DNA of 63,311 bases, counting the filler, from Chthonomonadaceae bacterium (GTDB lineage Bacteria > Armatimonadota > Chthonomonadetes > Chthonomonadales > Chthonomonadaceae), in the NCBI GenBank assembly GCA_035650735.1. It is 4 parts of 4 records of this genome, joined end to end, with 100 filler letters (N's around TTAATTAATTAA, not from the genome) between each part and the next. Parts side by side here need not be neighbours in the genome. Positions count along the whole stretch, not along the records: positions 21,412 to 49,613 come from DASRGZ010000132.1; 3 more parts are not named here. One strand, given 5' to 3'. Shown here in pieces: positions 5,689 through 56,311 of the stretch (position 1 is the stretch's first letter; every line of letters starts with the position of its first letter). The notes beneath the pieces were generated by a model that searched no databases, was not told the origin of the DNA, and saw only the letters and a program-made list of their open reading frames with translations. A program made the translations under genes and the position numbers.

Positions 5689-8600
5689 CTACTTTATCGG
5701 GGCGGCGGTCCAGAGTTTGGCGGTGGCGTCGTCGCTGCCTGTCGCCAGGGTGCGACCATCCGCAGAGAATACGAGGCAATGGACGGCCCGGCTGTGCCCT
5801 CTGAGGAGCGCGACTTCCTGCTTGACGGCGGTGCTCCACAATTTCACCACGCTGTCCCGACCGCCCGTTGCCAGCGTCTTCCCGTCGGGGCTAAACGCGA
5901 CAGCGAACACGCCGCCTGCGTGCGCGATAAAACGGAAGGAAATCGGCCTGGCGGCCAGCGTCCATAGCTGGACCGTGCCATCCCCGCTGCCGGTCGCCAG
6001 CAACCGACCATCGTGAGAGAATGCCACGCAAGTCGCCTCGCGGTTATGCCCGGTAAGCGTAGCGAGTACCCGCTTCGTGGCAAGGCTCCATAGCTTGACC
6101 GTGCCGTCGCTGCTCACAGTCGCTAAGACGGTGCCATCGGGCGAAAAGGCCACCGCGTTGACCGGCCCCGAATGTCCTTTGAGGCTGGCCGTTTGCCTGC
6201 GCGTCGCAACATTCCAGAGCTTTAGGACGCCATCCCAACTTCCGGAGGCCAGCCGCTTGCCATCCGGTGCAAAGGCCACCGAGTAAACCCAGGCCGAATG
6301 CCCTGAGAGCGTGGCGATCTCCCGGCGGGCGGCAACGCTCCACAGCTTGATGGTGTTGTCATGACTGCCTGTTGCCAGGATCTTGCCATCAGGAGCAAAG
6401 GCGACCGCATTAACAAAGTCCTGATGACCATTTAAGACGCCAACTTCCCGCCCGGTAACGGTGCTCCAAAGCCGAACGGTATGATCCTGGCTGCCTGTCG
6501 CCAGCAGCTTGCCGTCGGGGGAGAGGGCCACGGACGTTACCGGCTGGGCATGTCCTTTCAGCGTGACGGTTCCCGATTCGCCGACACGCCACAGCTTCAT
6601 CGTGCCATCCCAGCTGCCGGAGGCCAGCCGTTTGCCATCCGGGGAGAAGGCAACGCTCACCACCGAGCCTGTATGTCCCTTGAAGGTCGCCAATTCCTGC
6701 TGGGTGGCCGGGTTCCACAATCTTACGGTGGTGTCCTCGCTGCCTGTCGCCAGGATTTTTCCGTCAGGAGAGTACACGATGGAGTAAATGGAGCTCCTAT
6801 GCCCGCGCAGCGTGCCGACCTCCTGGAAGGTATTCAAGCTCCATAGTTTCACCGTGCTATCCTGGCTCCCAGAAGCCAGGGTCTTGCCATCGGGAGAGAA
6901 CCGGAGGGCGTCCACTTCATACCGGTGTCCCCTAAGGGTGGCGATCTCCACAGCGTCGGCAGACAGCAGTTTCACTATGGTATGTCCCTTAAGTGTGGCA
7001 ATCTCCTGGTGTGTGGCGACATTCAGCAGTTTGACCGTGCCGTCAAAACAGCCGAAGGCCAGCGTCTTACCGTCCGGGGAGAAGGTGACGACATCCACTT
7101 CGCGGCTGTATCCACGATGGCTCCAGAGCTGCTTGAGGGGAGAGAGGCTCCAGATTTGAACAGCGCCATCCCAACTGCCCGTAGCCAGCAGCTTGCCATC
7201 CGGGGAGAACGCCACGGAAAAGACCCAGCCGGAGAATTCCGGGAGCGTGGCGATCTCCCGGTGGGTAGGTACATCCCACAGCTTGACCGTGCTATCCTTA
7301 CTTCCCGTCGCCAGGATTTTGCCGTCGGGAGAAAGGGCCAGGCAATAGATTCCGCTCTTGTGGCTGGTCCGCAGCGTGGTCGCCTGTTTGGAAACGAGGT
7401 TCCAGAATCGAAGGCTGCCGTCCATGCTGCCGGTCACCAGGGTTTTGCCATCGGGAAAGAAGGCGACGGCATGGATGCCCTCAGTATGGCCTTGCGGTGA
7501 GAATAGGTCTTGATGCTTGTCGAGGTAGACAGGGTCAGGCTGCCACAGGCGCCTGTCCTGCGCATGGCCTTGAAATGTGAACAGGTCTTGATGGCACAGC
7601 CGATAGAGATAGCCCCACTCGAAGCCGCGCACGTCTTCCTGCCCGCGAGCCGGTTTTTGCGCTGCCAGCAATTCCTGCACGCGCTCGATATTGTTGGCTT
7701 CCCATGCCTGCTGGGCCAGGTTCATCTGCGCGGCATATTGTTCATGGCGCGCGATCCGCTCTCCCTGCTGGGCGCGGCGGCGCTCCCGCTTTTCCCCTGC
7801 CGCCGCGATGCGCGCCTGCTCTGCTGCCTCGCGCTCCAGGAGGGCGGCTCTGCGCGCGGCCTGGGCATTCTTTTTGGCTTCAGCACTGCTGCGTTGCGCC
7901 GAGCCCGCGCTCATCAGAGCCCTGAACTCTGCCAGCCGGGCTATACGCATCACCGAGCGGGCTTTGTCTCGCTGCTGTTCCGCATCGGCTTTGGCCTGCT
8001 GGGCTTCCTCGGCTTTGCGCGCCGCCAGGTGCGCTGCCTGCGTCTCTGCCAGCCTGGCTTGATTGGCCAGAGCCAGCGCGCGCTCTTTGGCTCTGGCCTG
8101 GAGGAAGCTGCTCAGCGCCAGGCTGCCGATAATAAGAAGGATCACGCCGGAGACGGCAATCGCGCGCAGCAGACCTTTACGGTAGGCGGCACGCTGGCGT
8201 GCCCGCTCCGCATCGGGCATGCTGGAGGCGACCCACTCCCGGTCGAAGACCCGGAAATAGATGCGGTTGCGCACCGCCAGGGCGCCCTGAGCCACCCGGA
8301 TGATCCCCGACAGGCGCAGCAGGCTGATCAGGGGATTGGTTTCATCATCCTTGATATGCTTGCCGCTGCGTACCTTGTCGTAGAGATCCAGCAGACTCGC
8401 CAGATCGGCTTCGCTTCTCAGCAGGCGTTCGCGCACGAACAGGAGGTTGTCGTCCCGTTCGCGCGCCCGCGCGGAGAGGAAGAGCTCGGCGCATAGCCTG
8501 TCTACGTCCGCAGGCGTGTTGGCGTGGGCGTCTTCGGCGACGGCCTGGCAGAGCCGCTGAGTCAGGTAAGGATGCCCGCCCGTCCAGTAAAGGATGCGTT

Positions 8601-21311: not shown

Positions 21312-21411
21312 NNNNNNNNNNNNNNNNNNNNNNNNNNNNNNNNNNNNNNNNNNNNTTAATTAATTAANNNNNNNNNNNNNNNNNNNNNNNNNNNNNNNNN
21401 NNNNNNNNNNN
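21312..21411. other. Artificial contig linker
   Basis: N44-TTAATTAATTAA-N44. Confidence 0.99.
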
Positions 21412-31134: not shown

Positions 31135-31761
31135 ATGTTGAGATCAAGGAAACAGGTGGTTCTCCGGGTGGTATGGCGGTTAGTCGCGTGTATGTTTCTG
31201 GCTTTTCTCGCCATGCTTATCTCTATATCGGCCACAGAAACGGATCCGACATTACTGTACTTTGTTGCCTTTGCGATTAGCTCCATAATGCTGCCGCTCG
31301 CTTGCATCTGGTTCGTGAAGGTGGGCGAAAGAAACTACTCGCTGCCCCTGCGTCTGCTCTTACCATTGGTCTATTTCGGTTTGCTCTTTTCTATACCGAT
31401 GACTGAATGGCCTCTGCGCTTCACCCTGGCTATATATCAACTATCCACGAACGCATCCGAAACCGCCGCCATGATTTTGCTCTGCGCTTCACCCTGGCTA
31501 TATATCAACGCCCTCTACAGCGATTGGTAGATCGAACCCTGGCAGGTTCTACGGTGACCTTTCCACAAAGGATAGGCCCTTTTGTGATTTACAAGACTTC
31601 ACGGGAAGATCCTGGAATAGCCTCCTTGTGGCATAGACTCAAAGGGCCGTTCTTTTTTGGCGTTCTGCTCGCCAAACCAGGAACAACGATTTTTTCCGGG
31701 AGCTTTATGGTGTTGCAACCGTATTAATGGGCAGTGGCTGCTCGTCTCTGATTGGGATTAG
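31135..31761 (+). pseudogene. Membrane protein gene broken by a 68-bp repeat+spacer insertion and a probable second frameshift
   Basis: Three TM helices, then WPLRFTLAIYQ occurs in duplicated DNA; deleting 68 bp restores ...YQRPLQRLVDR...FPQRIGPF. Confidence 0.7.
31412..31509. repeat. Isolated repeat-spacer-repeat unit (30/38/30 bp) with CRISPR-like geometry
   Basis: CTCTGCGCTTCACCCTGGCTATATATCAAC identical at 31412-31441 and 31480-31509. Confidence 0.9.
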
Positions 31762-45299: not shown

Positions 45300-46661
45300 T
45301 CACGTTCTGGCTTCCCTCCAGACCGGCAATGCGGCGATGTTGAGATGCCGCGCCCCATCGAGCGGCAGCGCGGAGGGGCCGACAGAGGGGAAATCAGCAG
45401 GCGCTTCCATCTGTACGGTCTGTACGGCGGCGCTGTCTCCGACGATGTCCGTCGGCTCCTGTGCCCGGCCCGCGATGGTGTTGCCCGCGAAGTAGATGCC
45501 TGTACAGCCGGCGGCGACGGAGAGTGCCGGGCCTTTGCCCGGCGCAAACGTGTTGTCCAGGATGGCGATGTTATGCAGGCCGCCTGCAATGCAGATCTCA
45601 TATTCGGCGTCGCCGCGACGAGCCGTCGTGCGGCCAGGTACGCCCCGGTGAATGCGTGCAATGCCGGTCTCCTGTTCGGCGGCGCCGCGACAGTTGGGGC
45701 CGATAGTGTTGGCTTCGATCCGTATCCTGTCGCCGCCTTGCACCGCGGGACGCCGAAAGGCGATGCCCTGCAATTGGTTGCCGACGATCCGGTTCCCGCG
45801 AATCAGATGATCCGTATCCCGCTCCCCGATGGATATGCCCGCCGCGCCGTTGGCTTCCAGCCGGTTCTCCGCGCAGATCGAGTGCGTGGTGCGCAGGCAG
45901 TAGAAGACGCCGAAGCCGCCGTTGTCATGAACCGCGTTGCCCTCCATGACGTAGCGCACCGAGCCGCTGCCGGGATGCAGGCCGCTTCCGGTGTTGTCGT
46001 GAAGGTAGCAGCGGCGGATAAGAATGTCGGCGCACTGCTGGAAACTGATCGCGTCCCCGTTGTAATGCCGCACCTCGATGCCTTCCAGCCGCACGCGCCG
46101 GCACTGAAGCAGAAACACGCCCCCACCCCGGCAGCCGTTGAGCGCGCGCGTCTCCTCCGGGTTGCCGTCGAGCGTGAGGTTTTCCACCGCTGCCTCCGCA
46201 ACGTTCCAGCCCTCAATCAGCGGGAACAGGCTCGTCACCCGCCCATTGTGCGAGGGATGGTAATCGTGGTTGAGCATCCGATCAATAAAGAAGAGGTCCC
46301 CCTGACGCGCGATGATCGTGGCTACCGTGTCATAGAAGCCGTTCGAGTGGTCGTCGTGGATATGGACGCCCATGCCGACGCGGAACGTCTCCGGCTCGGT
46401 CACAGTGAACTCGTAATGGCCGTAGCCGATATAGTCGAGCAGGGGGCTGGTGACGCTGGGAATCTTTTGCAGCACCGTCCCCGGCTCCCCCACCAAGCGC
46501 ACTCCGTTGCGCAGATGTAGCGCATCCTGCATCCGGTAGGTGCCCGCCGGGATCTCCACGACGCCACCTCCGGCCTCTGCGACCGCATCCACCGCCCGCT
46601 GGAGGCTCTCGTTCGTTCTGTCCTGGTCGTGCCGGACATTTACGGTAATTCCTTTGCTCAT
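45300..46661 (-). CDS. Right-handed parallel beta-helix protein (pectin lyase-like)
   Basis: LQRAVD..GGGVVEIPAGTY; repeated N-x-x-x-G-(I/V) coils. Confidence 0.85.
   Translation of the reverse strand: MSKGITVNVRHDQDRTNESLQRAVDAVAEAGGGVVEIPAGTYRMQDALHLRNGVRLVGEPGTVLQKIPSVTSPLLDYIGYGHYEFTVTEPETFRVGMGVHIHDDHSNGFYDTVATIIARQGDLFFIDRMLNHDYHPSHNGRVTSLFPLIEGWNVAEAAVENLTLDGNPEETRALNGCRGGGVFLLQCRRVRLEGIEVRHYNGDAISFQQCADILIRRCYLHDNTGSGLHPGSGSVRYVMEGNAVHDNGGFGVFYCLRTTHSICAENRLEANGAAGISIGERDTDHLIRGNRIVGNQLQGIAFRRPAVQGGDRIRIEANTIGPNCRGAAEQETGIARIHRGVPGRTTARRGDAEYEICIAGGLHNIAILDNTFAPGKGPALSVAAGCTGIYFAGNTIAGRAQEPTDIVGDSAAVQTVQMEAPADFPSVGPSALPLDGARHLNIAALPVWREART
45585..45691. repeat. In-frame repeat-spacer-repeat unit (35/37/35 bp)
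   Basis: 45585-45619 and 45657-45691 match at 30/35 positions. Confidence 0.8.
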
Positions 46662-46724: not shown

Positions 46725-47180
46725 CCCGGCCCTAAAGGACCGGGCTGCGGACGGCAAGCCCCATAAATGGGGCTGCGCAGGGTGGATCGGTTCCTACCAA
46801 AGGCAAAGGAATCCACGCGCTCCGCCTGGAGAGCCTCTCGCAGAGGCTAACCAACCTCTCGTAGCCCGCTGATGATCCTTGCCCTTCTGAATCGGTCCTT
46901 GCCCGCGTAGGTGTCGCTAGGCGGAGGCAGGGGCCGTAACCCTGCCGACCCTTGCCGTCCATTGCAGGCCCGACCCTGGCAGTCAACCTTAAGCGCCGCT
47001 TCTACCAGGCCGAGATAATATCCTTGCCGTCCATTGCAGGCCCGCCCCTTGCCGTCAACGGGCCGCAGGCCCCACAGCGGCAGGGTTTAGCCTGCCGGCA
47101 AAGCCAGACGTTACCGATTTAGGTTGTCAAAGGTCATCAGGGGGCTTGCCGTCCGCAGCCCACTCGTTTACGGGTGGGCT
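46725..47180. repeat. Nested REP/MITE-like cluster
   Basis: GGGCTGCGGACGGCAAGCCCC inverted at 46742 and 47141; imperfect 28-bp IR at 46869 and 47113-47140; internal CCTTGCCGTC repeats. Confidence 0.75.
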
Positions 47181-49613: not shown

Positions 49614-49713
49614 NNNNNNNNNNNNNNNNNNNNNNNNNNNNNNNNNNNNNNNNNNNNTTAATTAATTAANNNNNNNNNNNNNNNNNNNNNNNNNNNNNNN
49701 NNNNNNNNNNNNN
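49614..49713. other. Artificial contig linker
   Basis: N44-TTAATTAATTAA-N44. Confidence 0.99.
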
Positions 49714-55919: not shown

Positions 55920-56211
55920 GCGGGCGAATGAATTCGCGGCAACAAAGGCACGAAGTCGCCCTGCGGCGACTGCCCTCACCCCCGGCCCTTTGTGTAGGGT
56001 GTAGGGTATAGGGTGTAGGGTGTAGGGTATAGGGTGTAGGGTGTAGGGTATAGGGTGTAGGGGGTAGGGGGTAGGGTGTAGGGGGTAGGGCCGCCCTCAT
56101 CCCCGGCCCTTCTCCCTTGCAGGGAGAGGGGAGAGCAGAAGCCGGATCACTCCCTTCCCTGGGAGGGTCGCTAGGTGTCGCAAGGCGGAGGCAGGGGCCG
56201 TAACCCTGCCG
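55920..56211. repeat. REP cluster containing a 14-unit heptamer tandem repeat (55994-56090)
   Basis: (G/A)TAGGG(T/G) x14 between two GCCCTCA(C/T)CCCCGGCCCTT copies; contig ends inside a copy of the repeat seen at 46911. Confidence 0.9.
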
Positions 56212-56311
56212 NNNNNNNNNNNNNNNNNNNNNNNNNNNNNNNNNNNNNNNNNNNNTTAATTAATTAANNNNNNNNNNNNNNNNNNNNNNNNNNNNNNNNN
56301 NNNNNNNNNNN
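56212..56311. other. Artificial contig linker
   Basis: N44-TTAATTAATTAA-N44. Confidence 0.99.

Follow-up and report, generated by a model that had tools for sequence, protein, structure and literature searches.

A beta-helix gene of a Chthonomonadaceae bacterium with a probable aged, in-frame off-target Cas1-Cas2 spacer insertion

The gene of a right-handed beta-helix protein in the genome of a Chthonomonadaceae bacterium (assembly GCA_035650735.1) carries a repeat-insert-repeat unit that is very probably a real off-target Cas1-Cas2 spacer insertion, aged and kept in frame. An older insertion of this kind had been proposed in an earlier note on the same DNA, and the proposal is supported by the empty sites of homologous genes as well as by the dissimilarity between the insert and the neighbouring coil. 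The gene is located in the window, by which the whole analysed stretch of 63,311 nucleotides is meant; it is joined from four contigs (C130, C132, C137 and C146) with N gaps at 21312-21411, 49614-49713 and 56212-56311, adjacency across the gaps being meaningless.

At 45585-45691 two 35-mers, identical at 30 of 35 positions at a lag of 72 nt, enclose a unique 37-mer within the beta-helix ORF, and the repeat-spacer-repeat described in the note is thus real. The duplication, however, runs 2 bp further and comprises 37 bp (31 of 37 identical, 84%) around an insert of 35 bp, so that the unit of 35/37/35 given there has to be corrected to 37/35/37. The host ORF encodes 453 amino acids and matches the Pfam family Beta_helix with an E-value of 6e-19 (Table 1). 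The insertion adds 72 bases, or 24 amino acids, in frame. All six base differences between copies A and B alter amino acids, too small a number to show selection, and this amino-acid-changing drift would be consistent with relaxed constraint on the copies. The site is not a functional CRISPR array, being made of two diverged copies of coding DNA within a gene.

Table 1. Positions of the insertion, its host gene and two further scars, counted along the whole window.
Feature	Position	Strand	Evidence
Right-handed beta-helix protein gene, host of the insertion	45300..46661	-	ORF, Pfam PF13229, AlphaFold, Foldseek
Target-site copy A, 37 bp, CCTGCAA start; downstream copy in the protein, homologue-like residues kept	45583..45619	+	homologue alignment
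35-bp foreign insert, putative spacer	45620..45654	.	7/35 and 10/35 versus neighbouring DNA
Target-site copy B, 37 bp, 31/37 versus copy A; upstream copy in the protein, drifted	45655..45691	+	sequence comparison
Second scar, outside predicted genes: perfect 30-bp duplication with a 38-bp insert (size class of type I-B)	31412..31509	+	
Third scar: 38/34/38, 37-bp class, in a multi-copy intergenic repeat element	46950..47059	+	

The orthologue from the same genus (genome G001, 68% identity over residues 1-325), which represents the only match to the host protein among 40 relatives searched, has a single copy across the site and exactly 24 residues fewer. In 13 aligned homologues from genome contigs, a 24-column gap is found in seven, a shorter gap in five and a frameshift in one. 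Among the 86 homologues that could be scored across the site, drawn from the best 150 library matches, none has a 24-residue excess and 46 have no excess at all, the maximum being 15. The 24-residue indel that had been predicted for beta-helix homologues is therefore present, since both the G001 orthologue and all scorable homologues are without the insert. Judging from these alignments, the 24-residue stretch would be an insertion in this lineage.

The AlphaFold2 model of the host protein, based on an 84-sequence alignment, has a mean pLDDT of 93, within which residues 332-346 of the insert fall mostly below 50. According to this model the insert is a flexible, disordered loop on an intact beta-helix and not a coil. 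The best Foldseek match is the A-module of AlgE4 (mannuronan epimerase, PDB code 2pyg, 17% identity), and the top matches, none of them above 17% identity, are epimerases of the AlgE4 type and polysaccharide lyases. The host protein shares its fold with the right-handed parallel beta-helix proteins of PF13229 and with the AlgE4 A-module, but the identity to the latter is too low to fix a substrate, and the 24-residue loop is absent from the homologues examined.

The phage and plasmid search with the insert that the note had suggested yielded no source, matches in these databases being at chance level only (E 1-4). Viral contigs contain no exact 18-mer of the insert, and the best match in its own genome (24 of 35) equals that of shuffled sequences.

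The beta-helix site has many counterparts. Within the 6.5-Mb assembly, 177 distinct non-array repeat-insert-repeat sites are found at lags of 58-80, compared with about 17 expected; the background at lags of 80-200 amounts to 0.4-1.4 sites per lag. With the filter used for the relatives, lags of 58-80 give 203 non-array pairs and a control range of the same width (lags of 103-125) gives 17, so the observation exceeds chance. Three sites with repeated-element inserts and six protein tandem repeats were left out, and the remaining 168 sites fall into classes of about 28/33 (nine sites), about 30/36-38 (70 sites) and about 37/35 (41 sites), with 48 sites left unclassed. Except for a few carried by multi-copy elements, the duplicated sequences are different host DNA at each site, and the inserts are unrelated to one another. 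Most likely, the genome holds about 150 off-target integration scars in three size classes. The copies of the 37-bp class are the most diverged (mean 4.4%, compared with 1.6% in the 30-bp class, where 51 of 70 duplications are perfect), and by its own divergence the beta-helix scar would be among the oldest in the genome.

Some sites have a more complex build. At C224:43547-43709 a nascent array is observed at a non-CRISPR site, with three copies of a 29-30-bp host sequence and two different inserts, and nested scars, in which a newer duplication and insert lie within an older one, are present at C10:5060, C171:5688 and C204:4471. The multi-copy intergenic element that bears the third scar of Table 1 occupies positions 46908-47059 and 56172-56211 of the window; some of its copies bear a scar and have carried it to other contigs, and the insert of the third scar recurs on contigs C55 and C101. 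The window further contains a heptamer simple repeat of the TGTAGGG type (55978-56096), seen again in numerous intergenic regions elsewhere in the genome, and two genes of repeat proteins (1661-2695 and 5829-7468, with a period of about 153 and 126 nt, respectively), which from ORF reading we take to be beta-propeller-like.

Nine of the 177 inserts match unrelated places in their own genome almost perfectly, compared with none of 79 array spacers, as would be expected if scars do not become guides. Seven of these self-matching inserts belong to the 30-bp class, and in four of the seven an allowed placement of the boundary puts CCG directly 5' (chance 0.11, p 0.004), the other three showing CCG after a 1-nt slip, CTG and nothing similar, respectively. 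CC-type PAMs are linked to type I-B, and the 5' CCG is PAM-like. A prophage as the source of the self-matches is not supported, since the ORFs of contig C15, on which four of the nine lie, appear on reading to be ordinary chromosomal genes.

Predicted genes (gene model trained on the genome) contain no more than 13 of the 174 sites, compared with 73% of random positions; this depletion shows purifying selection on insertions. Eleven of the 13 genic sites are in frame, five of them being ordinary protein repeats, and the credible in-frame scars thus comprise the beta-helix one and four to five more. Among them are a scar within a glyoxalase domain and, at C198:74296-74502, an adjoining pair of different classes (30/36 and 37/35) at the 5' end of the gene of a TPR protein. 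One perfect frameshifting scar shortens a DUF2961 domain.

The three geometries are all covered by the CRISPR arrays of relatives, namely by 29-nt type I-E repeats with 32-nt spacers, by 30-nt repeats adjoining a Cas1 like the resident one and by 37-nt GTTGCA...GAAAC repeats with spacers of 34-39 nt adjoining a Cas1c-like gene; Cas1c-like enzymes with 37-nt repeats occur in the order-level relatives G026 and G030. With intergenic DNA as the null, the type I-E repeat is matched by the 28-bp class (n=9, z of 5.1), the leader and 30-nt I-B repeat of relative G012 together by the 30-bp class (n=70, z of 10.2), and both ends of the 37-nt repeat near the Cas1c-like gene of G030 by the 37-bp class (n=41, z of 7.4), this last motif being short and its orientation picked by best fit, with the null handled likewise. 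Cross-tests between classes and repeat types give z values of 0.3, 0.6, 1.8 and one weak 3.1. An unseeded motif search gives an information of 8.9-9.2 versus 4.6-5.1 in controls for the 30-bp class, a clear gain; for the 37-bp class the gain is modest (9.0-9.2 versus 6.6-7.3), and the template tests were used instead.

The consensus of the 37-bp class at positions 4-7 is GCAA (G34 C26 A22 A20 of 39), position 7 lying outside the template. At the beta-helix site seven of 11 end positions agree with the template and the GCAA at 4-7 is present, the cognate repeat itself being one that is not in the assembly. The likeness to a CRISPR repeat for which the note had argued thus stands, but the orientation has to be reversed: the site is best read on the plus strand, where CCTGCAA resembles the GTTGCA start of the relatives' 37-nt repeats. 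The repeat of the present host array, with which a comparison had been suggested, belongs to type I-B, is 29 nt long and is not the matching one. The resident system was rejected as the maker of the beta-helix scar because of its 29-nt repeat and of the z of 0.6 that the 37-bp class gives against the I-B template.

A single cas1, of the Cas1b type, and a single cas2 were found in the assembly (97.6% complete), next to the 29-nt array. They are part of a hybrid cas operon (C93:2502-22479) that encodes a WYL regulator, Cas6, type I Cas7, Cas5 and Cas3, Cas4, type III-A Cas10 and Csm2, Cas1b and Cas2, followed by an array of 80 repeats of 29 nt, of which relatives have 30-nt versions. The resident Cas1b has an internal insertion of about 65 residues, and the genes at the far end of the operon are presumably IS21-like, as read from the ORFs. 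Neither an integrase or array with a 36-37-nt repeat nor a type I-E Cas1 or Cas7 was found in the assembly; remnants of type I-E arrays with one to three repeats are scattered over contigs C19, C42, C94, C105, C109, C126 and C127. As the only integrase found is Cas1b, with its 29-nt array, the enzymes behind the 28- and 37-bp classes would have been lost or would be unassembled. Most scars of the 30-bp class duplicate 30 bp, one more than the 29 nt of the resident repeat; the genome's own repeat matches this class at an offset of +1 with a z of 9.2. A CAGGN preference can be read from the 30-bp class, and the leader junction of the resident array matches it in part only. As a guess, this partial match might be a second factor for low fidelity and could explain 29-nt repeats beside 30-nt scars.

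Integration by Cas1-Cas2 is a two-step strand transfer. The geometry, the empty sites of homologues, the target motifs of the classes, the depletion in genes and the self-derived inserts are shown by the data, whereas the enzyme, the course of events and the cause of the low fidelity are inferred. For the beta-helix gene the proposed course is as follows. A Cas1-Cas2 integrase with a repeat measure of 37 bp would have struck a repeat-like site with an NNNGCAA start in a gene instead of an array, a 35-bp prespacer would have been joined to two strands 37 bp apart, and gap filling would have duplicated the target. The 72 added bases would keep the frame and land in a turn of the beta-helix, and the protein could for both reasons tolerate the insert as a flexible 24-residue loop, in which one copy of the target keeps the ancestral residues and the other drifts. 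For the genome as a whole at least three integrases would be required, one of type I-E for the 28/33 scars, one of type I-B for the 30/36-38 scars and a Cas1c-like one for the 37/35 scars, only the I-B enzyme having been found in the assembly.

Three other origins were weighed. A process independent of Cas proteins, be it a mobile-element footprint, repair with filler DNA or insertion by a reverse transcriptase, has little probability. It would suit a genome rich in multi-copy intergenic elements, in which some scars sit and with which they move, as well as the missing 37-bp integrase and the sites outside the three classes. It does not, however, account for inserts that are mutually unrelated, for three sharp geometries that equal the three CRISPR periodicities of the lineage, each class matching its own repeat type, or for the PAM-like CCG at self-derived inserts. 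Target duplications made by transposons are, as far as is known, far shorter than 28-37 bp.

It is very improbable that a single 24-residue coil was duplicated in tandem and its middle part diverged past recognition. The coil period of the host protein (strands at residues 214, 238, 262 and 286) does equal the 72-nt lag, and with six differences in 37 bases the event is not recent. A coil duplication would, however, copy all 72 bases, and only 37 match: against the 84% identity of these, the other 35 bases agree with the neighbouring coil at 7/35 and 10/35 positions at lag 72, with 10/35 for the best split. An alignment of the insert with the neighbouring coil, named in the note as the outcome that would speak for simple tandem duplication, is thus not seen, and coil duplication is rejected. 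The modelled disorder of the insert also argues against it, as do 40 further sites of this geometry that have the start motif too and lie mostly outside genes.

That the scars are an artefact of assembly or sequencing, as 224 contigs and the many perfect duplications of the 30-bp class might suggest, has a negligible probability, since an artefact would neither spare genes and preserve the frame nor track the motifs of repeat types, the copies at the beta-helix site differ, G001 has scars of its own at other sites, and one metagenome contig (L139) contains the same locus with 100% identity over 4417 bp including the scar, though it may not be independent. In six DNA sequencing runs from three studies 86-91% of sampled words are present, which does not show that the scar is fixed; no RNA run was listed with them.

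Off-target insertion by Cas1-Cas2 thus remains the preferred reading, and similar scars are found within the genus. In G001 a sample of about 345 kb out of 5.7 Mb contains two scars, both of the 37-bp class and at other sites. From outside the genus, eight genomes with 1.13 Mb sampled gave no credible scar, the two matches being a simple repeat and a tandem-like repeat, whereas about 35 would be expected at the rate of the present genome. In 26 of the 27 genomes searched from the order, this one among them, no HU/IHF (PF00216) was found (controls positive in 9 of 14), and neither TIGR00987 nor the histone fold (PF00808) was found in this genome. As this absence of HU/IHF is common to scar-free relatives, it can be at most permissive.

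In the available part of PMC13769266, HU is described to suppress off-target integration by the type III-A Cas1-Cas2 of Thermotoga profunda in vitro. The off-target activity reported there in reactions without HU has its parallel in the genome studied here, in which HU/IHF was likewise not found; however, the work on T. profunda, as far as that part goes, is in vitro and concerns another subtype, and here HU/IHF was also not found in scar-free relatives. A wider reading is possible, though rather unlikely: in a lineage without HU/IHF every CRISPR integrase passing through the genus might act as a genome-wide insertion mutagen, the scars might be a fossil record of three successive systems, two of them since lost, that reports the target code of each integrase, and in-frame survivors might be new protein loops of foreign origin. 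The roughly 150 events would serve as a natural target library for three integrases and would let past CRISPR systems be inferred after the loss of their genes, the beta-helix scar documents a route to new protein loops, and the absence of HU/IHF makes the question of fidelity directly testable.

How common off-target spacer integration is in nature was stated to be unclear in the accessible text of 10.1101/148544. A genome-wide census of natural scars of this kind was not found in the literature searched, most subscription journals being outside its scope. As far as the available parts of the sources convey, "neo-CRISPR" loci of E. coli type I-E (Nivala, Shipman and Church 2018, via 10.1101/148544 and PMC7054753) needed up-regulated Cas1-Cas2, and the natural evidence, from two other species, was circumstantial. 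For isolated or orphan CRISPR arrays, off-target acquisition is given in the consulted portion of 10.64898/2026.04.27.721218 as one of three proposed origins away from cas genes. In contrast to the orphan arrays described in that portion, the scars reported here are single units, their "repeats" are differing pieces of ordinary host DNA and no canonical repeat is present. With the E. coli loci, as presented in the available parts of 10.1101/148544 and PMC7054753, they share an insert of spacer length between duplicated targets of repeat length, located at chromosomal sites that resemble a repeat, and in both cases a site is occasionally re-used. Unlike in those accounts, about 150 natural events in three size classes are found here in one genome, where hits in genes are visibly selected against and an aged survivor is kept in frame. 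Off-target integration itself is known from laboratory E. coli; the scale and the record of three integrases are what is distinctive here.
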